DNA from: Escherichia phage CJ20
Sequence record: MT533174.1
Strand: one strand, 5' to 3'
DNA length: 64,000 nucleotides
Position 1 is the first letter of the stretch. Every line of letters begins with the position of its first letter. Positions 19,161 through 54,571 of this stretch are shown here, one piece after another. A model generated the notes under the pieces. It had not been told where the DNA came from. It worked only from the letters and a program-made list of their open reading frames with translations, and ran no database searches. The position numbers and the translations under genes are program-made.

Positions 19161-19844
<684 letters not shown>

Positions 19845-19845
<1 letters not shown>

Positions 19846-19874
19846 TGTACAAATGAGTGTAGGTGCAGTATTAT
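19845..19874 (+). promoter_or_regulatory. early-promoter-like element (GTGTAC -35, TATTAT -10) inside an inverted repeat
   Basis: AGTAGTGTAC followed 18 bp later by TATTAT; the -10 sits in the palindrome GTGTAGG...CCTACAC. Confidence 0.4.
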
Positions 19875-19905
19875 GCTCCTACACCAACGAACAAACGGAG
19901 TTAAA

Positions 19906-20238
19906 ATGAACATAAAGACTTACAACGAGTTTTTAGCCGAATCCGCCATCAATGAGACCAAATCAATTGATGATAGTGAAGGCTCTCTGAAATTTGGTTT
20001 AACCAAAAATGCAGATGGTGTTTTCTTTCAGATTGGTAATGAACGTTTTCAAACGTCCAAATATTCCAAAGCTGCAGTTGAAGCTGTCCTGAAATCTGGT
20101 GGCAAGTGGAAAGGCAAAGAAGGTACTAAAGAAATTGGCATCGCTGTTGACGGTGGTATGGCTTATTTTAAAATTGGCGATGAACAATTTATTATGTCTG
20201 CTCGCGGACGTAAAGAACTGGCAAAACTTTATAAATAA
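19906..20238 (+). CDS. internal-protein-like small protein with capsid-targeting-type N-terminus (MNIKTYNEFLAES)
   Basis: N-terminus resembles the T4 internal protein targeting sequence MKTYQEFIAEA with Glu at the protease-site position; located at the T4 ipI locus next to 57B. Confidence 0.6.
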   Translation: MNIKTYNEFLAESAINETKSIDDSEGSLKFGLTKNADGVFFQIGNERFQTSKYSKAAVEAVLKSGGKWKGKEGTKEIGIAVDGGMAYFKIGDEQFIMSARGRKELAKLYK

Positions 20239-20527: not shown

Positions 20528-20827
20528 ATGCAAACTTTTCATGAATTTTTGGTAGAAAACAATTACCTGGCGGAAGCAAAAACCTGGCCTCTGGGTCTTC
20601 AGAAGAAAAACACCTATAAATGGGTTGACTTCAAAGGTAAAGGCGACGCTGAAGACTTTGACCAGCTGCGTAAAAATGGTTATACCTTCCTTGACTCTAA
20701 CTATAACAAAATTACCTCTTTTAGTCAGAAGTCAAGCATTGCCTTCATTGAAACTGGTAAGAACTCTCCTAAAGATATTTCTGACGACTTCGCCGCTTAT
20801 GGTGTAATTCGTGGTTCAAAAATGTAA
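20528..20827 (+). CDS. internal-protein-like small protein (MQTFHEFLVEN)
   Basis: Capsid-targeting-like N-terminus; GDAEDF...NGY-F motif shared with the ORF at 34591. Confidence 0.55.
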   Translation: MQTFHEFLVENNYLAEAKTWPLGLQKKNTYKWVDFKGKGDAEDFDQLRKNGYTFLDSNYNKITSFSQKSSIAFIETGKNSPKDISDDFAAYGVIRGSKM

Positions 20828-20856
20828 TGTACATGATGGGATAGTTGCAGTATAAT
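20828..20856 (+). promoter_or_regulatory. early-promoter-like element with -10 inside the palindrome GGGATAGTTGCAGTATAATTATCCC
   Basis: TGTACA then 17 bp then TATAAT; palindromic -10 region; followed by the leader CCATCAACTACTGGAG. Confidence 0.45.
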
Positions 20857-20882
20857 TATCCCATCAACTACTGGAGCTACTA

Positions 20883-21161
20883 ATGAAAACTTATCAAGAA
20901 TTTATTAACGAATCAATTAGTCACCCGGATATGCTGGAAGACCTGAAAGGACATCTGATGGTTAAGGCCAAACCGGTTGATGGTGGCGCATTTGAGTTGT
21001 TTCTTGTTAAAGGCGAAAACGGTCCTGATAACAAGAAAGTTTCAGCAATGATGTTGACTAAAGGTTACAAAGTCAGTTCTTCCTGGAATGCTCCATTCAC
21101 TTACGCGGTAAGCCCTCGTGAACTGAAAAAAGTTAAAGCTGGACAATATACAAAAATTTAG
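20883..21161 (+). CDS. internal-protein-like small protein (MKTYQEFINES)
   Basis: Capsid-targeting-like N-terminus. Confidence 0.6.
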   Translation: MKTYQEFINESISHPDMLEDLKGHLMVKAKPVDGGAFELFLVKGENGPDNKKVSAMMLTKGYKVSSSWNAPFTYAVSPRELKKVKAGQYTKI

Positions 21162-21190
21162 TGTACGTGATGGGATAGTTGTAGTATGAT
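21161..21190 (+). promoter_or_regulatory. early-promoter-like element (GTGTAC, 18 bp, TATGAT)
   Basis: Same architecture as the 20828 element; followed by the leader CATCAACTACTGAGGAGAATAAAATG. Confidence 0.45.
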
Positions 21191-21218
21191 TATCTCATCA
21201 ACTACTGAGGAGAATAAA

Positions 21219-21404
21219 ATGAAACGTTGCGAATTAATTAGAAATGTTACTGCCCTTGTTGCTGTTACCACTTTTGGTTTTAGCATGTTTGCTGGCTTTA
21301 TGTTGAATATGCTTTCAACTTCTGAGAATATAATCTCTTTAGTAGTTGCATTTTTAATTGGTTCAATCTCTTTCGTTATGGATAAAATCTCTAAAGGTGA
21401 GTAA
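21219..21404 (+). CDS. small hydrophobic membrane protein
   Basis: 61 aa from the ATG after GAGGAGA; two hydrophobic segments. Confidence 0.5.
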   Translation: MKRCELIRNVTALVAVTTFGFSMFAGFMLNMLSTSENIISLVVAFLIGSISFVMDKISKGE

Positions 21405-22661: not shown

Positions 22662-22735
22662 GGCCCTGTAGCTCAATTGGTTAGAGCATCCGGCTCATAA
22701 CTGGCAGGTTTCCGGTTCAAGTCCGGATGGGGCCA
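22662..22735 (+). tRNA. tRNA with CAT anticodon (Met or Ile2-type)
   Basis: Manual fold: D-arm GCTC/GAGC, anticodon loop CTCATAA, T-arm TCCGG-TTCAAGT-CCGGA, 7-bp acceptor stem with two G-U pairs; T4 encodes a CAU-anticodon tRNA-Ile. Confidence 0.7.
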
Positions 22736-22737
22736 CC

Positions 22738-22814
22738 CGGGGTGTAGCTTAATTGTATAGAGCAACGGTCTTCTAAACCGTAGGTTGTGGGTTAGAATCC
22801 CGCCACCCCGACCA
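22738..22814 (+). tRNA. tRNA-Arg (TCT anticodon)
   Basis: Manual fold: acceptor CGGGGTG/CACCCCG, anticodon stem ACGGT/ACCGT with loop CTTCTAA, T-arm GTGGG-TTAGAAT-CCCGC, encoded CCA; T4 also encodes tRNA-Arg(UCU). Confidence 0.8.
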
Positions 22815-22829: not shown

Positions 22830-23069
22830 ATGGTTATTAGTGAATCATATGCAGTTATGGATATAACCAGCAACGAGCTGGTTTATAGCTTTGATGAGTT
22901 TGATGAAAATGATAAACAAGTCCCATGGTTTGCATTAACTGCTCCACCTGAGCATAATAAATATCTAAGTTTCCCGACACGTAGATTAGCAGCAAATTTT
23001 ATGGAATTCAATGACCTTGATTCCAATTATAAGGTTGTTAAAGTCAAATTAGCTATTACAATTGAATGA
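22830..23069 (+). CDS. hypothetical protein
   Basis: 79 aa from the ATG at 22830 after GAGGA; the upstream part of the track ORF overlaps the tRNA. Confidence 0.5.
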   Translation: MVISESYAVMDITSNELVYSFDEFDENDKQVPWFALTAPPEHNKYLSFPTRRLAANFMEFNDLDSNYKVVKVKLAITIE

Positions 23070-23368
23070 GAAACCGGGTCGCTACCGGTAAGTCGTCGGA
23101 CTGATGTTCCCTGCGTAAGGACTGGTCTTAATAAATCTTTACGATTTGTTAATATCCCCTTACATCACAGCAGAAACGGCGCACAGAATTATCGATTCGA
23201 GGAAATATCTTTGCCGTAAGCCGAGTAGCGTTTTTGACGGAACGTTCGGATATGGTCGAGATATGGCCTTTTAAAAATATTGAGTAGCGTCAACTGCTTA
23301 ATAACCGGGTTCGAATCCCGGCGTTTCGTACAAACACTTGCCTTGCAGGTGGAACCCCGACAAGGTAT
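23070..23368 (+). ncRNA. possible stable small RNA(s) downstream of the tRNAs (position of T4 RNA C / RNA D)
   Basis: About 300 bp without a convincing ORF start; contains a tRNA T-arm-like CCGGGTTCGAATCCCGG; ends at a terminator hairpin; T4 has stable RNAs in the equivalent place. Confidence 0.3.
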
Positions 23369-23397
23369 AGCCCCTTCCGAAAGGTTGGGGCTTTTTT
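23369..23397 (+). terminator. rho-independent terminator
   Basis: GCCCC...GGGGC stem followed by TTTTTT. Confidence 0.6.
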
Positions 23398-23420
23398 ATA
23401 AATCAACTAAAGAGAAACGT

Positions 23421-23975
23421 ATGAAACTGTTAAAATATTTGAGTTGGATTCTGTTAGTTCCGCTGGATTTTATCTCCATGATTCTGGCCGTTATCCTGGC
23501 TCCATTTGTAGTTCCGTTCCATAATAAAAAGACTGGTAAACTTCCGTTTGGGTTTGATTGGATGATGACTTATGATAATCCGATTGATGGTGACCGGGGT
23601 CATGTCAAACGTTGGTCAAAAATCCGAAAATGGCCATTAGGTGTTTACTTCCAACGAGTAGCCTGGCTCTGGCGAAACAAAGCATACAATTTTGCTTACC
23701 ACAAGCTCGGCCGTGATTGCAATTCAGAATTCCATTATAAAGGTAATCCTGATGTCGAATCTGGTTCCCCGGATAAAGCTCATCACGGTTGGCTCTTTAT
23801 GTGGACGGACAATGCCTGGGGTGTTTTTGCTTCTGTTCCTTATCTTAAGGTCGGTGGAATCACCTTTTATCTGCGTGTTTATTGTGGCTGGAAGCTCAAG
23901 AGTCTTCTGTCCCGACCTATCCCTAAGGCTATGCTCGCCTTCCATATAAATCCGTTCCGCTTTTATAAGAACTAA
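23421..23975 (+). CDS. hypothetical membrane-anchored protein
   Basis: 184 aa from the ATG after AAAGAGAAA; N-terminal hydrophobic helix; the track ORF's 5' extension overlaps the RNA region and is rejected. Confidence 0.6.
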   Translation: MKLLKYLSWILLVPLDFISMILAVILAPFVVPFHNKKTGKLPFGFDWMMTYDNPIDGDRGHVKRWSKIRKWPLGVYFQRVAWLWRNKAYNFAYHKLGRDCNSEFHYKGNPDVESGSPDKAHHGWLFMWTDNAWGVFASVPYLKVGGITFYLRVYCGWKLKSLLSRPIPKAMLAFHINPFRFYKN

Positions 23976-23976
23976 C

Positions 23977-23999
23977 AGCCCGCATTGCGGGCTTTTTTA
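23977..23999 (+). terminator. rho-independent terminator
   Basis: AGCCCGC-ATT-GCGGGCT hairpin followed by TTTTTT. Confidence 0.7.
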
Positions 24000-24035
24000 T
24001 ACCCTGAATAAATTTGAAATTTTCTTCAAAAAGTA

Positions 24036-24065
24036 GTGTACATCCGAATTGACCGGGTGCATAAT
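24036..24065 (+). promoter_or_regulatory. early-promoter-like element (GTGTAC, 18 bp, CATAAT) with conserved leader
   Basis: Followed by the leader GATTCCATACTGAGTTA...GGAGAAATAAAATG that recurs at 24573, 24945, 25478, 44478 and 45061. Confidence 0.45.
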
Positions 24066-24116
24066 GATTCCATACTGAGTTACACACTGAATCAAACAAA
24101 ACTTTGGAGAAATAAA

Positions 24117-24542
24117 ATGAACTTTCTGACCCTGACCTCTGCATTCTCTGTTACCCGCATCACTAACAAAATGGTTGCTGACGAAGTATGTGAAATCTGC
24201 ATTCGTGAAGATGCACTTATTCATCTGACTTCAACCCAGATTGTTGCCATCGCCAAGTCCCTTAATTCTGAACTGAAGGTAAACACCAAACAGTCAAAAG
24301 AATCTATCATTGAATTAATCCAAGCTGAAATGATTGAATTTCCAATTGAAGAAGTTAAAGAAGAAAAAATCCAGTCCAAATCTGGTAACGCTCGTGACAT
24401 TTGCTTCCAGGCATTTGCAGAAATTGATATGAATGATAATGCAGCTCGCCGCGCTCTGATTGATGTTCTGGTTACCACCCATGATATCAAAAAGACTGTT
24501 GTTCAGTCATATGCATCCAACTTCCGCAAAGCTCAAAAATAA
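24117..24542 (+). CDS. hypothetical protein, paralog family A (shared C-terminal module ending SYASNFRK)
   Basis: 141 aa; C-terminal 50 residues are paralogous to the C-terminus of the 24995 ORF. Confidence 0.6.
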   Translation: MNFLTLTSAFSVTRITNKMVADEVCEICIREDALIHLTSTQIVAIAKSLNSELKVNTKQSKESIIELIQAEMIEFPIEEVKEEKIQSKSGNARDICFQAFAEIDMNDNAARRALIDVLVTTHDIKKTVVQSYASNFRKAQK

Positions 24543-24553
24543 TTGAGAAAAGT

Positions 24554-24583
24554 GTTTTACTTCCAGGTGGGATAGTGTATAAT
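24554..24583 (+). promoter_or_regulatory. early promoter-like (GTTTTAC, 17 bp, TATAAT within palindrome GGGATAGTGTATAATTATCCC)
   Basis: T4-early-type -35/-10 spacing; the palindrome occurs in reverse-complement orientation at 34868. Confidence 0.5.
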
Positions 24584-24624
24584 TATCCCATACTGAGTTA
24601 ACAAATAAAACACTGGAGAATAAA

Positions 24625-24921
24625 ATGTTCAACGCACCTGCATGGCACGCTACCCAAGCTCAAGAAGAAAACAAAGCAATCATTTCTGCTAAAATTGAAG
24701 CTCAACTGAATGAATTGTGTGAAACTGCTTCTGAAGAAGTTGTTGCAATCATCAAACAGTATCCTGCATCCAACTACTCCCTGGCATGCATCAAAACAGA
24801 AATGGTTAACTTGTGGCGTAAGAACAAGAAAACTTTCTTGGGTATGCAGTACCAAGCAATCGCGTCTGCAGTAGTAAACATGTATGACTTTGAAGTTTAT
24901 TTCCCAACTTCTGAAAATTAA
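24625..24921 (+). CDS. hypothetical protein
   Basis: 98-aa ORF behind the conserved leader. Confidence 0.55.
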   Translation: MFNAPAWHATQAQEENKAIISAKIEAQLNELCETASEEVVAIIKQYPASNYSLACIKTEMVNLWRKNKKTFLGMQYQAIASAVVNMYDFEVYFPTSEN

Positions 24922-24994
24922 TGTGTACTTTGGAATTTAACTAAGACATAATGATTCCATACTGAGTTAACAAATAAACAAACGGGATAATAAA

Positions 24995-25438
24995 ATGAAA
25001 ACTTCAAAACTGGTTAAGTATGTTAAACTGGCATTAAACAACTCTTCTGAAGCTGAAGCACAATCCGCAGCACGTATGTTCTTCAAACGTCTGACAGCTG
25101 AAGGTATTTCATTTAACCCGGCAGTATTTGGTATCACTCGTGGCGAAGCTGCTAAACTGGCAACACTGGCAGGTAAAATTTTTAAAGGTCTGAATGATGG
25201 ACAGGTTAAACCAGAAGTTAAACCTACTCCTAAGACTGAACCAAAAGCTGAACGTAAGGCACCTAAACGCTCCGGTATGAGCAACAAAGATTTATGCTAT
25301 GATATGTTCAAAACTGTTAATATGTCTAATGGTGCTGCTCGCAGAGCTGTTATTGATATGATTGTGCGTGAGTTTGGATTCAACAAAGCATCAGTTCAGT
25401 CTTATGCTTCCAACTTCCGCAAAGAATTTGAAATTTAA
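24995..25438 (+). CDS. hypothetical protein, paralog family A
   Basis: 147 aa; C-terminal module GAARRAVIDMIVREFGFNKASVQSYASNFRKEF parallels the 24117 ORF. Confidence 0.6.
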   Translation: MKTSKLVKYVKLALNNSSEAEAQSAARMFFKRLTAEGISFNPAVFGITRGEAAKLATLAGKIFKGLNDGQVKPEVKPTPKTEPKAERKAPKRSGMSNKDLCYDMFKTVNMSNGAARRAVIDMIVREFGFNKASVQSYASNFRKEFEI

Positions 25439-25522
25439 TTCAAAAAGGGGGGTATACAAGCCCCCTGCTTTAAGGCATAATGATTCCATACTGAGTTACA
25501 CAATAAAACACTGGAGAATAAA

Positions 25523-25828
25523 ATGAAATTCATCATCAACCTGGCGCTTGTTGACTTTGATAAAACTGGTAATTTCGCATCTGCTGAAAATATGATTCGT
25601 AACACCAAGTTTAAAGTGCAAGTTCAACAGGCGGTAGCAAAAGAGTTCTTTACTGATAAATTAACTAACGTTGTCAATCACCTGAATGTGCAAGTTAAAT
25701 TTACTCGTGAAGCAGAAACTACTGTTGCATTTGATTTTGACTGCCAATACCATGATGAATATGTTCGCCGTATCCTGGATATTGTGTCTGATGAACTGTA
25801 TTATGGTGTGCAGGAAAACAAAATCTAA
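25523..25828 (+). CDS. hypothetical protein
   Basis: 101-aa ORF behind the conserved leader. Confidence 0.55.
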   Translation: MKFIINLALVDFDKTGNFASAENMIRNTKFKVQVQQAVAKEFFTDKLTNVVNHLNVQVKFTREAETTVAFDFDCQYHDEYVRRILDIVSDELYYGVQENKI

Positions 25829-25904
25829 ATCAGTGTACGCTTTAATGGGAACATGATAGTATGTTCCCTGGATAATAAAACATTAACCAACTGAAGGAAA
25901 TACC

Positions 25905-26498
25905 ATGAATACTTTAAAGAAAATTGTTGAATTCATCCGCTCCAAACTGGGTACTGCAATGGCAAAAAACCTGTCTATTGAAGACCAATATACTCAAGCG
26001 GCTTCTACCCTGATTGACAAGATTACTGAGCTCCAGACTGCCCACGTTAAGTCTATTAATGAAGAAAAACGCATCCGCGAGTTGGCGAATGAAAAAGACC
26101 AACTGGCAGCTTCAAAAGAGCGTGAAATCCGCAAACTGATTGCTGATGGTGCGGATGTCCAGGTCCATGCTAAACTGGGTCTCCTGTATCGCCGCACCGC
26201 TAAACAACTTCGTAAGAAGGCAGATGATTATGTTGAAATGCGTAATGAAATTAAATTGAAAGTTAAAGAGCTGGATGACTCTCGTCAGGAACTAGCTGTT
26301 AAACTGGAATACATCCGCGAAACCCGTAAAGTATCTGCTCTGGGTATTGCGACCGCAGATGATGTTGTTGAAATCGCTGCATTGACTAAGATTGATATTG
26401 AAGACACTCTGATGCGTGTTGAAACCTTCAAAGGTCCACAGGTTGGTGTGGATACCACGTCCGCTGACATTGAAGAATACATCAATTCACTTAAGTAA
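25905..26498 (+). CDS. hypothetical coiled-coil protein
   Basis: 197 aa; heptad-like charged helices. Confidence 0.55.
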
Positions 26499-26502
26499 GA
26501 TA

Positions 26503-26520
26503 AAGGGGGCTTTGCCCCCT
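26503..26520 (+). other. GC-rich hairpin (AAGGGGGC-TTT-GCCCCCT)
   Basis: Perfect stem directly after the stop of the 25905 ORF; no clear U-run. Confidence 0.4.
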
Positions 26521-26540
26521 AATTGGGAGAGGAGAAAATT

Positions 26541-27095
26541 ATGAGCTTATATACTGACCTTATATCAAATGTAGACTGGTTTGGCGGTAGTGGTCTTGCT
26601 ACTGAAACTAATACAGTTCTTTATAGAATCCGCGGTGATTTGGGTTATTCCAATGATTTCTTAAGAAGAACGACAAGTCGCGGTGATACTACAAAATTGC
26701 CTTTTATTTTTGCTTTAGCTGAAGACCTTTCTTTTGCAGATGCCTTGGAAATTATTGATGTAAATCTGGGTATTCAACGAGTGGAATTCGCTGGACTACG
26801 TTATTCAGTATATGCTTTAAACGAGAGCGATGATTGTATACTTCTTAATATGGCAGATGATGATTACCATTTAGTATGTTATGTGACGCTAGAAAATGGT
26901 GATGTATTTGGAATGGTTGACCGCCGGCCAGCTTATACTGATATTAAAAATTATGATAAAGATGAGCTTACTATTTTGGCTAATGAGTACACATTAGAGA
27001 GTCGTAAACGGAAACGTAAGCTTAATCGTTTTATTGCTGAATGTCGTGAATATGCTAAAGGGGTTCATAATGCGAACGTTATATCTGCCAAGTAA
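26541..27095 (+). CDS. hypothetical protein with C-terminal FIAECR tail
   Basis: 184 aa from the ATG after GGGAGAGGAG. Confidence 0.55.
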   Translation: MSLYTDLISNVDWFGGSGLATETNTVLYRIRGDLGYSNDFLRRTTSRGDTTKLPFIFALAEDLSFADALEIIDVNLGIQRVEFAGLRYSVYALNESDDCILLNMADDDYHLVCYVTLENGDVFGMVDRRPAYTDIKNYDKDELTILANEYTLESRKRKRKLNRFIAECREYAKGVHNANVISAK

Positions 27096-28065: not shown

Positions 28066-28347
28066 ATGATGAATGATTACCGTAAAAATAAAGAACTGGC
28101 TAACGCAGTAAATGACATCCATAAAGCTATTCGTCGTGCCGAGGAAATTGCAGACAAATATGAGACTCATTTTAATATATACCCTGCTCGCGGTATGGGC
28201 GGTGACTATTATTCTCCTGGCGCCTTGAAAGCTGACCTTGCCCATTGGGAAGAACATGGTCATCCTGAATGGGCTATTGTTAATACTCATGACTATACAA
28301 CTGACCTGGAAAATGGTGGTTGGGTGTCCTCCTCTTACGAATGCTAA
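28066..28347 (+). CDS. small protein, tandem paralog family B
   Basis: 93 aa; ends WVSSSYEC; EEIADKYE helix shared with the neighbour. Confidence 0.55.
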   Translation: MMNDYRKNKELANAVNDIHKAIRRAEEIADKYETHFNIYPARGMGGDYYSPGALKADLAHWEEHGHPEWAIVNTHDYTTDLENGGWVSSSYEC

Positions 28348-28356
28348 GGAAATAAA

Positions 28357-28584
28357 ATGACTGCTAAAACTGTTAAAGAAATTGAAAACCAAATCCGTGC
28401 ACTAATCTGTGAAGGTGAGCAGCTGGCCGATAAAACTGGTGAATACTTTCATGTGTATGCTGATAGTCTTCAACGATATATTCCCGCAGGTTGTCCAGAA
28501 TATGAAGAATATGACTGGATTCGCGGTGATTACGGTATCCCAGATGGTAAAGGCTTCTGGTTTAACTCCTCTATGACTTGTTAA
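28357..28584 (+). CDS. small protein, tandem paralog family B
   Basis: 75 aa; ends WFNSSMTC. Confidence 0.55.
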   Translation: MTAKTVKEIENQIRALICEGEQLADKTGEYFHVYADSLQRYIPAGCPEYEEYDWIRGDYGIPDGKGFWFNSSMTC

Positions 28585-29078: not shown

Positions 29079-29408
29079 ATGCATAAAGATTCGGTATTCA
29101 AATATCTTTTGAAAACAGATAAAGAATTCTATATGAATGGGCAAGCCTTCTTGTTCGTTCGTGGTAAACGTGAGATGTTTTACAAATGCGACCTCTCAAT
29201 GCATCATCATATGTATCATACCCACGGTGAGCATATACTGGGGTTCTCCGGTGACGAGACTAGACATATAGCTATGTACTATGACCATTTTAAGCTTAAT
29301 GATTGTGGTGACAATGCTTTAGTCTGGAACTCATCTTGGCGCCGATGGGACGTAGTAGACAACAATAAATTATTTTTAGAATATTGTCGAAGCAGTATAC
29401 AAGTCTAA
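29079..29408 (+). CDS. hypothetical His-rich protein
   Basis: 109 aa from the ATG after GGAGGA; HHHMYHTHGEH segment suggests metal binding. Confidence 0.5.
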   Translation: MHKDSVFKYLLKTDKEFYMNGQAFLFVRGKREMFYKCDLSMHHHMYHTHGEHILGFSGDETRHIAMYYDHFKLNDCGDNALVWNSSWRRWDVVDNNKLFLEYCRSSIQV

Positions 29409-29472
29409 AAAACTGTGTTACTATACTCCTATCAACTGATGACAATCACGTTATCAGAACAGGAGAATAAAA

Positions 29473-29673
29473 ATGTCTATCGCAAACGAATTAATCAAAG
29501 TTCTGAACGAAGCCAAAGTCAACCAACTGGAGGTTAATCTCCAGGAAGTTTCTGATGGCATTAAAGTAACCATCAGTGGTGATTACGCAGGCGTCACAGA
29601 ACGTGTTTGTGATTCTCTGGAAGAAGTAGTTTCCTGCATTAAAAGAGATATTTACGCATACGGTATTATTTGA
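29473..29673 (+). CDS. hypothetical protein
   Basis: 66-aa ORF after CAGGAGAATAAAAATG. Confidence 0.5.
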   Translation: MSIANELIKVLNEAKVNQLEVNLQEVSDGIKVTISGDYAGVTERVCDSLEEVVSCIKRDIYAYGII

Positions 29674-30892: not shown

Positions 30893-30951
30893 TTGTGTAC
30901 ATCCAAGTGGGGCTATGACACAATGGTCCCACAATCAATGAGGAAAATATT

Positions 30952-32909: not shown

Positions 32910-32935
32910 TAAATACCCCTATATAAGGGGGTATT

Positions 32936-33427
32936 ATGAATATATTCGAAATGTTACGCATAGATGAAGGTTGTAAGTTGGATTTGTATAAAGATACTGA
33001 AGGCTATTGGACCATTGGTATCGGGCAACTGATAACTAAGAACCCATCAAAAGATGTTGCTCGTGCCGAGCTCGACAAGCTCATGGGTCGCGTCTGTAAT
33101 GGTCGCATAACCCAGCACGAAGCTGAAACATTGTTTAACCGTTCGGTCGAAAAAGCTAAAGCCGGAATCTTGAGACACCCTGTCTTAAAACCTGTTTATG
33201 ATGTGCTAGATGAAGTTCGTCGTTGTGCACTCATTAATATGGTATTCCAGATGGGTGTTGCTGGTGTTGCTGGTTTTCCTAAGGGTATGCGATTGTTGAA
33301 GGCCAAATCGTGGGAAGCCGCCGCCAAGGAACTGGCCGACTCGAGATGGTATAAAGTCCAGACTCCGAACCGAGCCAAACGAGTTATAGAAACGTTCCGT
33401 ACCGGAACTTTTAGCGCATACAAATAA
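32936..33427 (+). CDS. e: endolysin (T4 lysozyme e)
   Basis: 163 aa; [12 protein letters not shown]...[13 protein letters not shown]...[12 protein letters not shown]...[14 protein letters not shown] closely matches T4 lysozyme with Glu11, Asp20 and Thr26 conserved. Confidence 0.95.
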
Positions 33428-33435: not shown

Positions 33436-33738
33436 ATGAAAACGTATAAAGAATTTATCACCGAAGCGCGCGTAAGTGCAGGTAAATTAGAAGCCGCTGT
33501 AAATAAAAAGGCCCATTCATTTCATGATTTACCAGATAAAGACCGTAAGAAACTTGTAAGCCTTTATATTGACAAAGAGCGTATTCTAGCTCTCCCTGGC
33601 GCTAACGAAGGTAAACAGGCCAAGCCTTTGAATTCTGTCGAAAAGAAAATTGATAACTTTGCTTCTAAGTTCGGCATGTCTATGGATGACCTTCAGCAAG
33701 CGGCTATCGAAGCAGCTAAAGCAATTAAAGGTAAATAA
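33436..33738 (+). CDS. internal protein (ipII/ipIII-like) with capsid targeting sequence [11 protein letters not shown]
   Basis: 100 aa; targeting-type N-terminus; located between e and denV, where T4 has ipIII and ipII. Confidence 0.7.
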
Positions 33739-33740
33739 CA

Positions 33741-33769
33741 GTTTACTTCCACGATACGTGTGATATAAT
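33741..33769 (+). promoter_or_regulatory. early promoter (GTTTAC, 17 bp, TATAAT) upstream of denV
   Basis: Canonical -35/-10 spacing, followed by the hairpin GTTCTCCTAC...GGAGAAC and the denV ribosome-binding site. Confidence 0.5.
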
Positions 33770-33797
33770 GTTCTCCTACAAACATAGGAGAACAAAC

Positions 33798-34214
33798 ATG
33801 ACTCGCATTAATTTAACCCTGGTATCTGAACTCGCTGACCAACATCTTATGGCTGAATATCGTGAACTTCCTCGCGTGTTTGGTGCTGTTCGTAAGCATG
33901 TGCAAAATGGTAAAAAGGTGTCTGACTTTAAAATCCCATCATCTTTTCTTTTAGGGACTGGTCATGTCACCTTCTTTTATGATAAGCTTTTGTTCCTTAA
34001 AAACCGGCATCAAGAACTTATTGCGGAATGTTTAAAGCGAGGGTTTAACATAAAAGATATTTCTACCCAAGATTTAAATGATATTCCTGATGAATGGAAG
34101 AATGATTATCAACCATCAATCTGGTCAATTGAAATCAGTCAAGCCAGACTGAATGAGAAAATTTCTCAAAAGCCTACCTGGTACAAATACTATGGGAAAG
34201 CTGTGTACGCTTAA
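33798..34214 (+). CDS. denV: endonuclease V (pyrimidine dimer DNA glycosylase)
   Basis: 138 aa; near-identical to T4 DenV over most of its length ([35 protein letters not shown]..., [12 protein letters not shown]). Confidence 0.95.
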
Positions 34215-34262
34215 CTAAAAAGGTTGTATAATGATTTTATCAACCAAACAATGGAATATAAA

Positions 34263-34577
34263 ATGAAAACTTATCAAGAATTTATTACTGAATCTACCCA
34301 AAAACGTGTTGAAGGCGGTTATGTCTGGATTGAACAATTAACCCCACCAAGTGAAACGAGCACGGGTTCGTGGAAAATTACTGTTGATGGCCCTGGTGGA
34401 AAACGTAAGACTATTAAAGAAATTAAAGGCTATTATGATGAAGCCAAATCATGGGCTGGTAGTCATGTAATGCAGATTAAAATTGCAAACCCGGATAACG
34501 TTCATGCGGCAAAAGCATTCCGTCGCATTGGTAATAAACTTTATGATGCGTTTTTGCGTGATTTCCCTAAAGAGTAA
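34263..34577 (+). CDS. internal-protein-like protein (MKTYQEFITES)
   Basis: 104 aa from the ATG at 34263; targeting-type N-terminus. Confidence 0.6.
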   Translation: MKTYQEFITESTQKRVEGGYVWIEQLTPPSETSTGSWKITVDGPGGKRKTIKEIKGYYDEAKSWAGSHVMQIKIANPDNVHAAKAFRRIGNKLYDAFLRDFPKE

Positions 34578-34590: not shown

Positions 34591-34854
34591 ATGAAAACTT
34601 ATCAAGAATTTATTACTGAATCTGCTAAAGCTCCTACCGGTGCTTTTAAAGTCCGCGCCTTCGCTGGTGATGCTGAAGACTTTGGCACCATGAAGCGCAA
34701 TGGTTATTCTTTCTTTGGTGGCGATGGTAAAGAAATTGTTACCTATGCAAAACGCCGCGAAATCGCATTCGTGGTTGCTGGTAAGAAAGTTGATGTTGAC
34801 GATATTGAATGGGATTTTGATACCTTTGGTATTGTTTCTGGCGGTAAAGCATAA
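34591..34854 (+). CDS. internal-protein-like protein (MKTYQEFITES)
   Basis: 87 aa; targeting-type N-terminus; paralogous to the ORF at 20528. Confidence 0.6.
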   Translation: MKTYQEFITESAKAPTGAFKVRAFAGDAEDFGTMKRNGYSFFGGDGKEIVTYAKRREIAFVVAGKKVDVDDIEWDFDTFGIVSGGKA

Positions 34855-34857
34855 CTG

Positions 34858-34888
34858 TTTACTTTATGATGGGATAATTATACACTAT
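34858..34888 (+). promoter_or_regulatory. early promoter-like (GTTTAC) with palindrome GGGATAATTATACACTATCCC
   Basis: Reverse-complement copy of the 24573 palindrome; followed by the leader CCATCAACTTGGAGCGAATAAATG. Confidence 0.45.
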
Positions 34889-34910
34889 CCCATCAACTTG
34901 GAGCGAATAA

Positions 34911-35210
34911 ATGAAAACTTATCAAGAATTTATTACTGAAGCCAAAGCTCCTAAAGCATTTCAAATTGGGGTTCAGGGTAATTTAGACCAACAATATGTT
35001 GATGCTATTGTAGCAAGCCTCGGCAAGCAGGGTGTACAAGTGGATTTGGTTGATTTTACTAAAGGTAATACTTTTAATATTGTTACATCTAAAGGTTCTT
35101 TAGCTAAAGTTAAAAAGGCCTTTGGTGTAGCACAAGCATACGAAATCGACCATTCTGAATTAGAAAATAAAGGTCGCCAGAACACAATTAAAGGCTCTGG
35201 TTCTTTTTAA
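34911..35210 (+). CDS. internal-protein-like protein (MKTYQEFITEA)
   Basis: 99 aa; targeting-type N-terminus. Confidence 0.6.
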   Translation: MKTYQEFITEAKAPKAFQIGVQGNLDQQYVDAIVASLGKQGVQVDLVDFTKGNTFNIVTSKGSLAKVKKAFGVAQAYEIDHSELENKGRQNTIKGSGSF

Positions 35211-36422: not shown

Positions 36423-37002
<580 letters not shown>

Positions 37003-37031
37003 TGTACAAGCAGGTTGAAATGAGTTATGAT
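37003..37031 (+). promoter_or_regulatory. early-promoter-like element (GTGTAC, 17 bp, TATGAT) upstream of regB
   Basis: Same architecture as the other repeated elements. Confidence 0.45.
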
Positions 37032-37058
37032 TATCCCATCAAACAAAAGGAGATAATC

Positions 37059-37517
37059 ATGACTACTATCGATTCAAGTGTTTACATTCGCCGCAATAAA
37101 CTTCGTCGTATTTTTGAAACGGAGTTCCTCAAAATTAATAATGCTATCAACAAGGCTTGTAAAGAAGCAGGTCTTGAAGCATTCTTCATTAAGTACAGTC
37201 CGCACCTGTTGGACCGTGCAATCCAACGTGAAATTGACGAACAATATGTTTTTGACTTGTTTGGAAAAATCACACCACATGTAAAAGAAATCGTTGAATT
37301 CCTGGAGATGAAACCACTCCCGGAAGTTGAAGCACAAATTGACCCGAGTGTGAACTACCGTCCACTTCGTCTGGAAATCACAGACAAGAACCTATGGTTA
37401 GGAATGACAGTTAACCCAGCTCTTCCTGGGAAGTCTCCAACCATGTGTTGTCGTATGGCGTTTGTTAACTCTAATCGTCTTGAAGGAAAAATTAGCACAA
37501 AAGTGATTTATATCTAA
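37059..37517 (+). CDS. regB: RegB site-specific endoribonuclease
   Basis: 152 aa; strong match to T4 RegB (FIRRNKLRR, YSPHLLDRAIQREIDE, RPLRLEITDKNLWLG, CRMA-NS-RL-GK). Confidence 0.9.
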   Translation: MTTIDSSVYIRRNKLRRIFETEFLKINNAINKACKEAGLEAFFIKYSPHLLDRAIQREIDEQYVFDLFGKITPHVKEIVEFLEMKPLPEVEAQIDPSVNYRPLRLEITDKNLWLGMTVNPALPGKSPTMCCRMAFVNSNRLEGKISTKVIYI

Positions 37518-41081: not shown

Positions 41082-41086
41082 TTCAA

Positions 41087-41114
41087 AAGGTCTGCCTTCG
41101 GGTGGACCTTTTTT
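41087..41114 (+). terminator. rho-independent terminator with UUCG loop
   Basis: GGTCTGCC-TTCG-GGTGGACC followed by TTTTTT. Confidence 0.65.
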
Positions 41115-41181
41115 CATTTAGGGGTTTACATCCTCATCAAAAGGGTGTACTATTATCCCATCAACTACTGAGGAGAACACA

Positions 41182-41385
41182 ATGAGAATTAAAAATATCA
41201 AGATTGATGCAGTTAATACTGGTGATGAGGTTGTTATCTATCTTAATGATTATGCAATCTTTATGGACAGTGCCACTGATGAAGAAGTGGTTGAACTCTT
41301 ACAGAAAGCTCCATTTGAACTGTGTGAAGAAGATGCTACCCATCTTTCATCAGCAATTTTCTCATTATCATATGTGGTGGAATAA
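41182..41385 (+). CDS. hypothetical acidic protein
   Basis: 67-aa ORF after the leader ACTACTGAGGAGAACACAATG. Confidence 0.5.
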   Translation: MRIKNIKIDAVNTGDEVVIYLNDYAIFMDSATDEEVVELLQKAPFELCEEDATHLSSAIFSLSYVVE

Positions 41386-43406: not shown

Positions 43407-44413
43407 GAACAGTTATGAAAGGCTACTTCGGTAGCCATCTTTATGGAACAAGTACTCCGGAATCTGATGTCGATTTTAAAGAAATCTTTGTTCCTCATCC
43501 GCGAGATATCCTGCTCGGGACCGCGATGAACCATACCAACCTGAACACGAATAACACGGCTACCAAAAATACAAAAGATGATGTTGACCATGAACTTTAT
43601 AGTCTGAAATATTTCTTTAAACTGGCAGCCGAAGGCGAAACCGTTGCTCTGGACATGATTCACACACCGGCTGACCTGGTTGTCAAATCCGATTTACCAG
43701 ATGTATGGAAGTTTATCCAGGATAACCGTTCACGGTTCTATACAACTAACATGAAAGCCTATTTGGGGTATGTCCGTAAGCAAGCTTCTAAGTATGGTGT
43801 TAAAGGTTCTCGATTGGCTGCACTGCGTGGTGTACTGGCAATTGTTAACCAGATTCCTGAACAGTGGGTCGATTATCAAGAAGATGGTTCTACTAAGCAA
43901 CGACGTACTAAGGTAGAAGATATCAAACACCGGCTCCCTGAAAACGAGTTCTGTGAATGGGTATTTCATAACCATGAGAAAACAGGTCCTCAAACATTCT
44001 ATACTGTTCTCGGTCGTAAATACCAAACTACCCTGTCTTTAATCGAGCTCAAGCAGTCTCTGAATAAACTTGATGCCGAATATGGTGAACGTGCTCGTAA
44101 GGCTGAAGCCAATGAAGGTATTGACTGGAAAGCTCTGAGTCATGCTTATCGTGCCGGATACCAGTTGAAGGAAATCTATCAAACTGGTGACCTCCAATAT
44201 CCTTTACGTACAGCACCGTTTATCCTTGAAATCAAACAAGGGCTTCATGCTTTTAAAGATGTACAGGCCGAACTTGAAGCTATCGTTGATGAAGTCGAAA
44301 CTAATGCCATCTGGGCCGCTAAGAATGGTATGCCTGAGAAGGTAGACATGAAGTTCTGGGACAAGTTCGTTGAAGAGGTATACCTTGACAACCACAATTC
44401 CTATTATCGTTAA
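43403..44413 (+). CDS. putative nucleotidyltransferase-fold protein
   Basis: 336 aa; N-terminal GSHLYGTSTPESDVDF matches the Pol-beta-superfamily G[GS]...D-x-D motif. Confidence 0.55.
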   Translation: MRTVMKGYFGSHLYGTSTPESDVDFKEIFVPHPRDILLGTAMNHTNLNTNNTATKNTKDDVDHELYSLKYFFKLAAEGETVALDMIHTPADLVVKSDLPDVWKFIQDNRSRFYTTNMKAYLGYVRKQASKYGVKGSRLAALRGVLAIVNQIPEQWVDYQEDGSTKQRRTKVEDIKHRLPENEFCEWVFHNHEKTGPQTFYTVLGRKYQTTLSLIELKQSLNKLDAEYGERARKAEANEGIDWKALSHAYRAGYQLKEIYQTGDLQYPLRTAPFILEIKQGLHAFKDVQAELEAIVDEVETNAIWAAKNGMPEKVDMKFWDKFVEEVYLDNHNSYYR

Positions 44414-44418
44414 ATTCT

Positions 44419-44445
44419 AAGGACCCTTCGGGGTCCTTTTTTATT
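44419..44445 (+). terminator. rho-independent terminator with UUCG loop
   Basis: GGACCC-TTCG-GGGTCC followed by TTTTTT. Confidence 0.7.
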
Positions 44446-44457
44446 TTAAAAAAAGTA

Positions 44458-44487
44458 GTGTACAACCAGATGGTCATGAGGCATAAT
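44458..44487 (+). promoter_or_regulatory. early-promoter-like element (GTGTAC, 18 bp, CATAAT) with conserved leader
   Basis: AAAGTAGTGTACA...GCATAATGATTCCATACTGAGTTA, the same cassette as at 24036. Confidence 0.45.
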
Positions 44488-44526
44488 GATTCCATACTGA
44501 GTTACCAAATAAAAACGGAGAATAAA

Positions 44527-44733
44527 ATGTTAGAATTAATCAAAGCTGCTGGTGAAAAAGGTCTGATGGTTAACACTCGTGACCCTGAACAACGTCAAGC
44601 ATTTGGCGAGTTAAAAGCCAAAGGTCTGGTTAAAGCATCCCTTGGTATTGGTAATGCTTTGCGTGTGACTTTGACCCCTGCAGGTAAAGCAATGTTCTTC
44701 CCTAAACCATTACCAAAACGTCGTCGCAAGTGA
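44527..44733 (+). CDS. hypothetical basic protein
   Basis: 68 aa from the ATG after the conserved leader. Confidence 0.5.
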   Translation: MLELIKAAGEKGLMVNTRDPEQRQAFGELKAKGLVKASLGIGNALRVTLTPAGKAMFFPKPLPKRRRK

Positions 44734-44739: not shown

Positions 44740-45042
44740 ATGAAAAAGTATGAACTTGACATGATTGAGGCATGTCTGAAATCTGCTGACCATTTTAAGT
44801 TGAAAATGCACAAGTTAAGAGGAATGGTCAAAACTCCAGAAGAGAAGAAGCGATACGCTCTAAAGGAGAAATGTAAAGCTCTTATCATGATGGATAAGCT
44901 GCAAATGGTCGCCGCAGAAGCCCACAGGACGCGTAAAGCTGAGGCCCTTGGTGTTTATATGGCAGAGCAGCTCCATCGCGCACAGCAAGCCGTTAAGAGC
45001 GTCTGGTTCAGCGGTGAAAATACTGAAAGAACTTTTAATTAA
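44740..45042 (+). CDS. hypothetical protein
   Basis: 100-aa ORF. Confidence 0.5.
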   Translation: MKKYELDMIEACLKSADHFKLKMHKLRGMVKTPEEKKRYALKEKCKALIMMDKLQMVAAEAHRTRKAEALGVYMAEQLHRAQQAVKSVWFSGENTERTFN

Positions 45043-45045
45043 ATG

Positions 45046-45075
45046 TTGTACATAGTATGGGGATAGACGTATAAT
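45046..45075 (+). promoter_or_regulatory. early-promoter-like element (TTGTAC, 18 bp, TATAAT) with conserved leader
   Basis: Followed by GTTCCCATACTGAGTTACC...GGAGAATAAAATG. Confidence 0.45.
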
Positions 45076-45111
45076 GTTCCCATACTGAGTTACCAAATAC
45101 TGGAGAATAAA

Positions 45112-45636: not shown

Positions 45637-45637
45637 A

Positions 45638-45662
45638 CGCTTTATACCAAGGATGGTATAAT
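45638..45662 (+). promoter_or_regulatory. middle-promoter-like element (MotA-box variant CGCTTTA, 12 bp, TATAAT)
   Basis: Spacing fits T4 MotA-dependent middle promoters. Confidence 0.4.
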
Positions 45663-45699
45663 GGTTCTGACCTTTGATTAATCTATTGAGGAAATTATT

Positions 45700-47663: not shown

Positions 47664-47664
47664 T

Positions 47665-47694
47665 GTTTACTTCCAAGGATGGAGGGAGTATAAT
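47665..47694 (+). promoter_or_regulatory. early promoter (GTTTAC, 18 bp, TATAAT)
   Basis: Followed by the leader ...TTTATGAGGAGAACACTATG. Confidence 0.5.
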
Positions 47695-47721
47695 GAATTC
47701 CTACTTTATGAGGAGAACACT

Positions 47722-50290: not shown

Positions 50291-50401
50291 AACCATGGTA
50301 TACCGCTCGATGGGAAACTGTCGAGCCAGAGGAACCTGTTTACATCGGTTCCGAAACAGAGTATAATGAACCTTCAAACAATGATTTAATTGATATGGAA
50401 T

Positions 50402-54565: not shown

Positions 54566-54571
54566 AAAGGG

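Follow-up and report, generated by a model that had tools for sequence, protein, structure and literature searches.

Predicted early-promoter cassettes with stem-loops and shared leaders upstream of small genes in the T4-like Escherichia phage CJ20

The window analysed here comprises 64 000 nucleotides of Escherichia phage CJ20 (MT533174.1). By its sequence it is that of a T4-like myovirus, 94–97% identical to Gaprivervirus phages (∼ 95% to VR20 and SP18). Between 19.8 and 54.6 kb, on the early-gene (+) strand only, one intergenic module is present in 19 sharply defined copies and in one additional copy whose −10 is inverted (−35 at 34857; Table 1). It opens with A-rich sequence and a −35 of GTGTAC or GTTTAC; a spacer of 17–18 nt leads to the −10, behind which come a C-rich start site and a leader without structure, then the GGAG ribosome site and the ATG. 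A listing of the intergenic regions, read with the gene names of VR20 and SP18, places the modules in hyperplastic regions, with the ribosome site and start codon at their 3′ end and a small accessory ORF directly behind. The downstream genes belong to 19 different PHROG families, mostly of unknown function. One start in the list of open reading frames is wrong: the trna.4 orthologue begins at 21219, not at 21186. The initial annotation had reported at least 15 intergenic copies, which is correct, and the repetition itself was recovered by leader searches, by the palindrome, by a promoter regular expression and by a two-block position weight matrix (PWM).

Table 1. Cassettes and the regB gene in the CJ20 window. 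RegB site denotes an exact copy of GGAGAATAAAA; LOO, leave-one-out PWM score.
Feature	Strand	Leader	−35	−10	ATG	Hairpin or terminator	Gene and remarks
19833–19908	+		GTGTAC 19845–19850	TATTAT 19869–19874	19906	19857–19884 around −10, −14.6 kcal/mol, z −4.5	IP-like gene (MNIKTYNEF); −35 overlaps upstream TAG stop
20815–20885	+	B	ATGTAC 20827–20832	TATAAT 20851–20856	20883	20829–20871, −16.9 kcal/mol, z −5.9	internal protein (start MKTYQEFI); −35 overlaps TAA stop
21149–21221	+	B	GTGTAC 21161–21166	TATGAT 21185–21190	21219	21168–21200, one G·T pair	trna.4 orthologue; RegB site 21209
23974–24119	+	A	GTGTAC 24036–24041	CATAAT 24060–24065	24117	upstream terminator 23974–23996 with T-run, then A-rich stretch	leader from 24066
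24543–24627	+	A	(G)TTTTAC 24555–24560	TATAAT 24578–24583	24625	24567–24591 (includes GGGATA/TATCCC)	RegB site 24615
24911–24997	+	A	GTGTAC 24923–24928	CATAAT 24947–24952	24995	24931–24959, weak	
25439–25525	+	A	GTATAC 25452–25457	CATAAT 25476–25481	25523	G-run/C-run within 25439–25473, −35 in loop	RegB site 25513
25829–25907	+		GTGTAC 25833–25838	TAGTAT 25857–25862	25905	25847–25868, arms GGGAACAT/ATGTTCCC	e.6 orthologue
29383–29475 (weaker)	+		GTATAC 29395–29400	TACTAT 29419–29424	29473		−35 within upstream gene; start region CTATCAAC; RegB site 29462; LOO 7.9 bits
30883–30954	+		GTGTAC 30895–30900	CACAAT 30919–30924	30952	30907–30932, two G·T pairs	
33729–33800	+		GTTTAC 33741–33746	TATAAT 33764–33769	33798	33769–33794, perfect, 10 bp	denV
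34191–34265	+		GTGTAC 34203–34208	TATAAT 34227–34232	34263		ip10-like internal protein; −35 inside end of denV
34845–34913 (inverted loop)	+		GTTTAC 34857–34862		34911	34867–34895	ip7
36990–37061	+	B-like	GTGTAC 37002–37007	TATGAT 37026–37031	37059	no stem	regB; −35 overlaps TAG stop; ribosome site GGAG
37059–37517 (gene)	+						regB; phrog_1323 endoribonuclease, E = 1e-71; annotated regB in VR20 and SP18
41085–41184	+	B	GTTTAC 41124–41129	TACTAT 41148–41153	41182	terminator 41085–41112 with T-run	mobD.5
44419–44529	+	A	GTGTAC 44458–44463	CATAAT 44482–44487	44527	terminator 44419–44438 with T-run	RegB site 44517
45034–45114	+	A	TTGTAC 45046–45051	TATAAT 45070–45075	45112	45053–45087, 13 pairs, −15.9 kcal/mol	nrdC.8; RegB site 45102
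47653–47724	+		GTTTAC 47665–47670	TATAAT 47689–47694	47722		nrdC.4
50326–50410 (weaker)	+		GTTTAC 50338–50343	TATAAT 50362–50367	50408	5-bp stem 50347–50372	inside small ORF 50275–50424, upstream of pin; LOO 14.7 bits
54560–54635	+	B	GTGTAC 54572–54577	TATCAT 54596–54601	54633	AAAGGGG/CCCCTTT 54566–54587, −35 in loop	55.6

A relaxed regular expression (−35/N16–18/−10) matched 28 times on the + strand and 5 times on the − strand, with an expectation of 5.7 per strand. The two-block PWM gave all 19 members ≥ 18 bits, whereas every other + strand site stayed below 10 bits; on the − strand one single site reached ≥ 15 bits. With leave-one-out scoring 16 of the 19 members retained ≥ 25 bits. The block that parts members from background includes A-runs such as AAAAAGTA 5′ of the −35, and the cassettes thus possess both the AT-rich upstream stretch of PeSL elements and their early promoter with −35 and −10 ∼ 17 nt apart (17–18 nt at 19 sites). 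A generic sigma-70 scan was uninformative (76 matches versus 59 expected). AGTAGT, said to stand often before the −35, does so in only three cassettes; the TAG or TAA found there is in many cases the stop codon of the upstream gene.

In T4, early promoters have GTTTAC at −36 to −31, an A-rich segment at −40 to −44, C at −3 to −1 and ‘additional regions of consensus’ (PMC1524935; PMC2988021), with A−11 and T−7 in the −10 (PMC1524935). Alignment of the CJ20 cassettes yields an invariant T.TAC, TA..AT and a C-rich segment before an A. No promoter features are annotated in the RefSeq and GenBank records of T4, and its sequence carries the module 5′ of trna.4, ipI, denV, e.6, e.7, e.8, regB and mobD.5, in the form GTTTAC, N17–18, TAnnAT and cYATCAACTACTGAGGAGAATAAAATG, with stems around the −10. 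Since the same module stands at orthologous genes in T4, the CJ20 modules are T-even early promoters of the PeSL kind (Arbiol et al., 2010; Comeau et al., 2014). We infer their promoter role from sequence and T4 orthology: the host sigma-70 RNA polymerase would use the A-rich stretch, the phage-type −35 (GTGTAC/GTTTAC), the 17–18 nt spacer and the −10, and the predicted first nucleotide of the transcript is the A directly behind the C-rich −3 to −1 segment (tatCCC-A, gattCC-A). MotA-dependent middle promoters were ruled out, as the cassettes have GT.TAC at −35 and no MotA box (TGCTTtA) centred at −30. Sites with a GCTT box occur apart from the cassettes: two intergenic regions, which begin at 45637 and 56871, contain one, and another lies just 5′ of the ATG at 58503.

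Two leaders recur behind these promoters. Leader A was searched for as the 13-mer CCATACTGAGTTA with at most one mismatch, a setting at which shuffled sequence yields 0.12 matches. Six exact copies, all on the + strand, were found at 24070, 24588, 24957, 25486, 44492 and 45080; the coordinates in the initial annotation were 2–14 nt too low. Leader A extends over ∼ 50 nt, is specific to Gaprivervirus with 9–13 copies per genome, and none is reported in T4. In the alignment it is invariant over a stretch with no known function that lies 3′ of the start and 5′ of the ribosome site. Leader B (CCATCAACTACTGAGGAGAA), searched with a limit of three mismatches (0.01 matches in shuffled sequence), lies at 21195, 41158 and 54606 with no more than two mismatches, and looser copies occur in the intergenic regions that begin at 20828 and 34855. 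Leader B is, to judge from its occurrence in T4 at orthologous genes, an ancient and constrained T-even early-promoter/start-site consensus.

The conserved leader has two parts. One is a start-site block that at the same time forms the 3′ arm of the hairpin; the other is a RegB/S1 site. Leaders are 20–45 nt long and unusually unstructured (folding z = +1.2), and the mean unpaired probability of ribosome site plus AUG is 0.70 in cassettes versus 0.51 in 70 control genes (p = 1e-9). In a search of the window against Rfam two tRNAs were the only matches, and the leaders matched none of its families. The sequence GGAGAATAAAA at the leader end of six cassettes, always on the + strand and adjoining the cassette ATG, is an exact match to the strong RegB/S1 site (consensus GG*AGRAYARAA; PMC3014915). 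It lies in the unstructured initiation region of early genes in a phage that encodes regB. The RegB endoribonuclease is predicted to cut the GGAG sites of the cassette leaders in trans; translation of the cassette genes would be efficient from the outset and would be shut down as the phage nuclease accumulates. At the 3′ end of the leader it is function (ribosome site plus RegB/S1 site) that explains the sequence, not common descent alone.

The palindrome GGGATAGTGTATAATTATCCC lies at 24569–24589 on the + strand and recurs as its exact reverse complement at 34871–34891 (previously placed at 34868). It had been proposed that the −10 sits inside such a palindrome. This applies to 13 of the 21 sites (stem score ≥ 5), compared with a rate of 28% among −10-like hexamers used as controls (p = 7.6e-4), but not to every cassette. 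In about half of the cassettes base pairing between spacer and start-site region gives a stable hairpin that encloses the −10; where this stem is lacking, a GC hairpin or a terminator is mostly present further upstream or around the −35 instead. In total ∼ 16 of 20 cassettes possess a hairpin: 10–11 around the −10, two around the −35, three as upstream terminators and one in the leader. No convincing hairpin was found in three to four cassettes (−35 at 37002, 29395, 47665 and 34203). Free energies range from −11 to −17 kcal/mol, with z from −4 to −6. In the ip7 cassette the 9-nt loop 34877–34885 is ATTATACAC, as opposed to GTGTATAAT or GTGCATAAT in relatives; the loop is inverted and the −10 thereby destroyed.

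The arms vary among cassettes yet stay complementary (GTGTAGG/CCTACAC, GGGAACAT/ATGTTCCC, GTGGGGCTAT/ATGGTCCCAC). In the cassette with its −35 at 30895 one pair reads C–G, T·G and T–A across orthologues, and in that at 45046 two double compensatory changes separate the window from PSD2001. Internal pairs are G·T in 17 cases and A·C in one, a count that includes orthologous copies and corresponds to ∼ 8 independent events versus 1. The compensatory changes and the excess of G·T suggest that selection acts on the sense strand of the stems. They also bear on the idea that the inverted repeats act in DNA, as an operator at which a dimeric repressor would turn off the early promoters or as a cruciform that modulates melting. 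The repeats do bracket the −10, the classic operator position, the shut-off of T4 early promoters is ‘not completely understood’ in the literature, and the inverted loop suggests that the palindrome is occasionally used in DNA, by template switching or recombination between the arms. However, the arms change from one cassette to the next and yet remain complementary, which argues against one sequence-specific protein, and we reject the operator; a cruciform, in which both strands fold, would not allow G·T to be tolerated and A·C to be nearly absent on the sense strand; and cassettes that lack a −10 stem carry their hairpin elsewhere. Action at the DNA level is accordingly very improbable.

The hairpin that encloses the −10 has the predicted start within its 3′ arm and can therefore form only in read-through RNA from upstream. 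In T4, translation of e, soc, 49 and I-TevI is insulated by hairpins that hide the ribosome site in read-through RNA, and the CJ20 hairpins could likewise be translational insulators that leave only own-promoter transcripts to be translated. The denV cassette fits exactly, with the ribosome site in the 3′ arm of its hairpin and the predicted start in the 5′ arm, and T4 denV (CTCCTGTAG/CTACAGGAG) has the same arrangement. Most 3′ arms, however, end 5–30 nt 5′ of the ribosome site, and its accessibility in read-through RNA (0.49 in cassettes versus 0.45 in controls, not significant) is no lower than in controls matched for transcript length. General occlusion of the ribosome site is therefore rejected, and insulation as the role of the hairpins seems quite improbable. 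Nor are the −10-spanning stems canonical intrinsic terminators: behind the 3′ arms come ACTACTGAGG, CAACGAAC, TGGATAAT and similar sequences in place of a U-tract, and T-runs stand only behind the upstream hairpins at 23974, 41085 and 44419.

With the stems read as elements of upstream RNA, they would probably attenuate or terminate transcripts that arrive from upstream, or protect the 3′ ends of these; hairpin or terminator would insulate each small gene as a unit of its own. We speculate that hairpin and RegB site may act as a pair, although we consider this unlikely. A cut at GGAG, 10–35 nt 3′ of the hairpin, would switch off the gene behind it, the message from upstream would keep a protective hairpin at its 3′ end, and the decay of neighbouring early messages would be uncoupled. 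If so, RNA processing, not termination, would explain sense-strand selection on stems that are missing from the cassette's own transcripts.

Comparison of flanking gene content among relatives, suggested in the initial annotation, was carried out as nine genome comparisons and revealed gene gain and loss with hybrid cassettes exactly at the indel junctions in close relatives. The gene 24625–24921 is absent from SP18, TH15, TH41 and P479, the partners of the indel being the cassettes with −35 elements at 24555 (left) and 24923 (right). VR20, TH57, TH15 and TH41 have an extra gene between two cassette copies at the 21149 locus, and in VR20 two copies of leader B flank ip6. An extra gene is inserted at 25830/25846 in VR20 and P479, an extra gene with a leader-A cassette at 30903/30939 in SP18 and PSD2001, and SP18 and TH22 have insertions at 44413–44446. 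These hybrid junctions show that recent cassette-mediated exchange is real. Because 25–70 nt of near-identical sequence recur between genes, the cassettes occasionally act as crossover points at which single genes are added, deleted or swapped.

The annotation had read recent exchange from the near-identical leaders themselves. This holds where hybrid cassettes mark the junctions but not for leader B, an ancient consensus common to T4. Its further suggestion of recombination hotspots is not demonstrated by these data: 11 of 19 cassette junctions are rearranged versus 39 of 85 other gene junctions (Fisher p = 0.24). The cassettes are, in these nine comparisons, used for exchange, yet not measurably hotter than other gene junctions. 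The lack of breakpoint enrichment, the age of leader B and the RegB plus ribosome site at the leader 3′ end would all suit a rival view, in which a strong promoter and an optimal ribosome site are the only shared constraint, the leaders are alike by convergence and the modules have no part in gene shuffling. Against it stand the hybrids at 24555/24923, the ip6 gene between two B copies and the leader-A insertion at 30903, and also leader A itself, which is lineage-specific, multicopy and invariant over a stretch without known function. We regard constraint as the sole explanation as rather improbable.

Taken together, each module is very probably a self-contained expression cassette for one T-even-type early gene, comprising promoter, leader and hairpin and open to recombination. 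On this reading each early transcription unit of CJ20 is delimited by its cassette, and the cassettes mark the small accessory genes (internal proteins, likely anti-defence genes) that would be expressed immediately after infection. They belong to a known kind of phage regulatory element.

The T4-type PeSL reading of the initial annotation is supported, as the three-part anatomy fits published PeSLs and the early-promoter regions of T4. In published PeSLs an early promoter with AT-rich sequence before it is combined with a stem-loop, whose position varies, and with a ribosome site and ATG; these elements lie in hyperplastic regions (PMC2839356; PMC4122927). The accounts of T-even PeSLs (the IP-locus elements of Repoila 1994 via Arbiol 2010; PST/T4, PMC4122927) describe the same components, namely AT-rich stretch, T4-type early promoter, variable AT-rich stem-loop, ribosome site and ATG, and the same setting in hyperplastic regions that include both internal-protein loci, with close-relative indels ending in the elements. 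The CJ20 promoter is G[T/G]TAC-N17/18-YAnnAT with mostly GTGTAC at −35, whereas that of T-even PeSLs was published as TTTACW-N17-TAYWAT (Comeau 2014; PMC4122927). The commonest CJ20 stem encloses the −10, whereas the legend of the PST figure places stems just upstream of the promoter (PMC4122927). CJ20 differs further in its lineage-specific 50-nt leader A and, in our data set, in showing no breakpoint excess over other gene junctions. With T4 early promoters and RegB-sensitive regions the cassettes share orthologous positions (trna.4, e.6, denV, regB, mobD.5), the start-site/leader consensus, a GGAG ribosome site that fits GGAGRAYARAA and a conserved regB; the terminator-then-promoter layout is found at T4 mobD.5 as well. 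They differ in the third base of the −35 (G in CJ20, T in T4) and in leader A, absent from T4. The PeSLs of RB49 and phi1 (Arbiol 2010; PMC2839356) are likewise composites of promoter and stem-loop, grouped by position into five subclasses, among them stems that overlap the −35 or −10, with an upstream stop codon at the element edge, tandem arrays flanking single small ORFs and exchange between neighbouring elements. RB49 has a near-perfect sigma-70 TTGACA and polyG/polyC stems, whereas G-run/C-run stems occur in only two CJ20 cassettes (25439 and 54566); promoter, terminator and mini-circle activities were measured for RB49/phi1 (PMC2839356), whereas the CJ20 cassettes are known from sequence. 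Arbiol et al. regard T-even elements as analogues, not homologues, of the RB49 PeSLs (PMC2839356).

The recurrent promoter/leader module proposed in the initial annotation was borne out by motif searches, a regular expression, a weight matrix and a listing of all plus-strand intergenic gaps, in which it recurs repeatedly. Each cassette comprises an A-rich stretch, a predicted −35, a 17–18 nt spacer, a −10, a C-rich start site, a leader (A and B being the two conserved types), a GGAG ribosome site and ATG, and is named here by the first nucleotide of its −35. The 13-mer CCATACTGAGTTA, found in leader A, has six exact copies (shuffle expectation 0.12 at ≤ 1 mismatch), all on the plus strand (24070, 24588, 24957, 25486, 44492 and 45080). 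Matches to leader B (CCATCAACTACTGAGGAGAA) with ≤ 2 mismatches lie at 21195, 41158 and 54606, and looser copies occur in the gaps that begin at 20828 and 34855. The palindrome GGGATAGTGTATAATTATCCC (24569–24589) does recur, as had been claimed, as an exact reverse complement (34871–34891). A relaxed expression ([GAT]T[GTA]TAC, N16-18, YAnnAT) gave 28 plus-strand and 5 minus-strand matches versus 5.7 expected per strand. A two-block weight matrix derived from 19 members was scanned on both strands; all 19 members scored ≥ 18 bits, all other plus-strand positions < 10 bits, and one minus-strand position reached 15 bits. With leave-one-out scoring, 16 of the 19 reached ≥ 25 bits (50338, 29395 and 25833 were weaker). 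Together with 34857, whose −10 is inverted, this gives 20 cassettes, all at 19.8–54.6 kb on the early-gene strand. The AGTAGT noted ahead of the −35 is mostly explained by upstream stop codons running into it (TAG/TAA + TGTAC); these overlap the −35 or lie within 4 nt of it in 11 of 20 cassettes.

The window has a GC content of ∼ 40%, with genes on the minus strand to ∼ 16.4 kb and on the plus strand beyond. Positions 23000–27000 match 768 phage records, the top ones being Gaprivervirus (VR20, SP18, the TH series, Yersinia P8; 94–97% identity), and 41000–64000 behaves similarly. In annotated relatives the genes run in the order gp5/53, 4, 2, 3, 1, 57A, 57B, internal proteins, trna.x, tRNAs, e.x, nudE, e, denV, internal proteins, vs.x, regB, tk, rI, mobD.x, nrdC.x, 49.x, pin, 49, nrdD/G, 55.x, 55, 47, 46, 45. 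From this order and the relatives' identity, the cassettes can be placed in the prereplicative, hyperplastic region of a T-even-type genome. Nearby, 23065–23396 is 90% identical to T4 70830–71172, where T4 encodes two stable RNAs, rnaD (species 2) and rnaC (species 1). Rfam, which has no family for either, reported nothing there. At 22662–22814, tRNA-Met (CAT) adjoins tRNA-Arg (TCT), and SP18 has an additional tRNA-Asn between them.

Leader B is, by alignment, the general T-even start-site/leader consensus, common to T4 at orthologous genes; its recurrence reflects old constraint rather than recent exchange. To judge from database matches, leader A is lineage-specific: its 52-nt consensus matched 47 phage records, with 9–13 copies in each of ∼ 35 Gaprivervirus genomes and 1–3 weaker copies in a few other genera, and T4 was not reported among these matches. 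Across the six copies there is little or no variation in the −10 to +17 block, ATAAT.(A/T)T(T/C)CCATACTGAGTTA, or in the final 13 nt (GGAGAATAAAATG or a close variant); the −35/−10 spacers are unrelated, as are the coding sequences, whose proteins fall into six different PHROG families (19 families for all 20 cassette genes). Two leader A genes, 24117–24542 and 24995–25438 (PHROG 9997 and 18416), lie two genes apart and are partial paralogues with a common ∼ 60-residue C-terminal domain ending SYASNFRK.

Part of the leader is a predicted site for the phage endoribonuclease RegB, whose strong RegB/S1 cleavage consensus is GG*AGRAYARAA (PMC3014915). The window holds six exact matches, all GGAGAATAAAA and all on the plus strand (see table), and two further cassettes match at 10 of 11 positions. 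RegB is inhibited by secondary structure; the leaders are unusually open (folding z-score +1.2). In the predicted own transcripts, the ribosome site and AUG have a mean unpaired probability of 0.70 versus 0.51 in controls (70 genes, same geometry; p = 1e-9).

Predicted hairpins, RegB/S1 sites and regB in the window
Feature	Position	Strand	Remarks
Canonical terminator	23974–23996		upstream of cassette
Canonical terminator	41085–41112		as above
Canonical terminator	44419–44438		as above
G-run/C-run hairpin	within 25439–25473		−35 in loop
G-run/C-run hairpin	54566–54587		−35 in loop
Leader hairpin	33769–33794		perfect, 10 bp; includes denV ribosome site
RegB/S1 site	21209	+	abuts cassette-gene ATG
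RegB/S1 site	24615	+	as above
RegB/S1 site	25513	+	as above
RegB/S1 site	29462	+	as above
RegB/S1 site	44517	+	as above
RegB/S1 site	45102	+	as above
regB	37059–37517	+	phrog_1323, E = 1e-71; own cassette upstream

The palindrome that the initial annotation placed around the −10 is present in only about half of the cassettes; the rest mostly have another hairpin. At 13 of 21 promoter sites the top-scoring helix around the −10 reaches ≥ 5, versus 28% of 777 −10-like hexamers elsewhere (Mann-Whitney p = 7.6e-4). Folded as RNA, these hairpins give −11 to −17 kcal/mol (z −4 to −6), and an independent repeat finder also recovers them. The conserved start-site block (TATCCCATCA, GATTCCATACTG) forms their 3′ arm, and their 5′ arm comes from the otherwise variable spacer. 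Since the predicted start falls within the 3′ arm, the cassette's own transcript would lack the hairpin. The arms vary among cassettes with complementarity kept (GTGTAGG/CCTACAC, GGGAACAT/ATGTTCCC, GTGGGGCTAT/ATGGTCCCAC; in T4, TGATGAGGTA/TACCTCATCA). One pair of the 30895 stem is C-G in VR20 and TH41, T·G in P8 and P479 and T-A in TH57, and the 45046 stem is two double compensatory changes from that of PSD2001. Internal G·T outnumbers A·C by 17 to 1 (∼ 8 to 1 as independent events) in a search that scored both mismatches alike. This excess points to sense-strand selection on the stems, most simply on RNA, and argues against a two-strand cruciform; a protein operator at the −10 repeats is disfavoured by arm sequences that are unconserved between cassettes. 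The −10-spanning stems lack a U-tract, which rules them out as canonical terminators, and hiding of the ribosome site in read-through RNA was rejected (0.49 versus 0.45 in controls). By analogy with promoter-early stem-loop (PeSL) elements, for which these roles were proposed, the hairpins most likely act in attenuation, or in 3′-end formation or protection of upstream transcripts.

At the ip7 cassette (34857), TH57 and P479 read GGGATA-GTGTATAAT-TATCCC (the VR20 loop is GTGCATAAT). The window has GGGATA-ATTATACAC-TATCCC (34877–34885), an exact inversion of the 9-nt loop between the arms that eliminates the −10. The change looks like a palindrome-templated inversion, though it may be an assembly artefact.

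Flanking gene content, a comparison suggested in the initial annotation, was compared with nine relatives and revealed gene gain and loss with hybrid cassettes. SP18, TH15, TH41 and P479 lack gene 24625–24921 and have instead one hybrid cassette, its left half from 24555 and its right half from 24923, with the crossover within the common CCATACTGAGTTA.CAAATAAA segment. In VR20, TH57, TH15 and TH41, two B-type cassettes enclose an additional gene (annotated in VR20 as the internal-protein gene ip6); the window has a single hybrid at this point (21161). Additional genes are also inserted at 25830/25846 (VR20 and P479) and, with its own leader A cassette, between the −35 and ribosome site of 30895 (SP18 and PSD2001). 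Some internal-protein-locus crossovers fall within the conserved MKTYQEFI codons (P8, 34292/34909). These alignments show that exchange through cassettes is real. The proposal of recent cassette-mediated exchange thus stands for the hybrids at indel junctions but not for leader B, an ancient consensus. Nor did the term hotspot find statistical support: 22 of 94 breakpoints (47 distinct events) lie at cassette junctions, and 11 of 19 cassette junctions are affected versus 39 of 85 others, an excess that is not significant among nine relatives (odds ratio 1.6, p = 0.24).

Other variable sites were seen. The internal-protein capsid-targeting motif (MKTYQEFI.E or variants) starts eight small genes (19906, 20247, 20528, 20883, 33436, 34263, 34591 and 34911), and several relatives' indel breakpoints lie in the first 30 nt of such genes, not in the promoter. 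Indels recur at 28320–28362, which has no promoter cassette: most relatives have a 165–175 bp insertion flanked by a 31–43 nt duplicated junction. Two insertions are absent from the window. One, after gene 2 (17798) in TH22 (658 bp) and likewise in P8 and P479, has the annotation of a homing or mobile endonuclease; the other, of 722 bp in TH15, separates nudE from e (32922–32936). The 184-aa gene 23421–23975 (within 23397–23989; 'holin' in the P8 record) is missing from SP18, TH57 and PSD2001, the deletion ending in two terminator hairpins with common sequence GGGCTTTTTTATA.

Distinct from the early cassettes, 45637–45699, 56871–56918 and ∼ 58450–58502 resemble MotA-dependent middle promoters. 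Each has a (T)GCTT box and, after ∼ 12 nt, TATAAT or TAAAAT, with TGn in two of three; the third follows a terminator. At 55701–55772, an extended −10 without a −35 (TGgTATAAT) lies inside an 8-bp hairpin (GGGGTCAT/ATGACCCC). The sequence after it, GGATAATAAAA, matches the leader start that follows the 25847–25868 hairpin, and the site may be an additional cassette type.

The same module is present in T4. Upstream of T4 trna.4, ipI, denV, e.6, e.7, e.8, regB and mobD.5 we find GTTTAC, 17–18 nt, TA(C/T)(T/A)AT, then c(C/T)ATCAACTACTGAGGAGAATAAAATG; the −10 is bracketed by inverted repeats, and the T4 regions align with the window copies. Cassettes 21161, 25833, 33741, 37002 and 41124 precede orthologues of these genes. 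T4 early promoters are of a UP/−35/TGn/−10 type with 'additional regions of consensus' (PMC2988021), and relatives have GTTTAC at −36 to −31, an A-rich −40 to −44 and C at −3 to −1 (PMC1524935); the cassette start regions, tatCCC-A and gattCC-A, agree with the latter. PeSLs are described as an AT-rich stretch, early promoter, stem-loop, ribosome site and ATG in hyperplastic regions, the stem-loop taking any of five positions, overlap of the −35 or −10 included, and T-even IP-locus elements as an analogue based on T4 early promoters (Arbiol 2010; Comeau 2014). Every one of these sequence-level features is found in the window cassettes. The PeSL-type identity put forward initially is therefore supported in substance, and the cassettes are best regarded as new members, in a Gaprivervirus-like phage, of a known T-even early-promoter/PeSL kind. 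Likeness to T4 extends to the mobD.5 cassette, where the upstream terminator is retained, and to the denV hairpin, the lone exception to non-occlusion, which has an analogue at T4 denV (CTCCTGTAG/CTACAGGAG).
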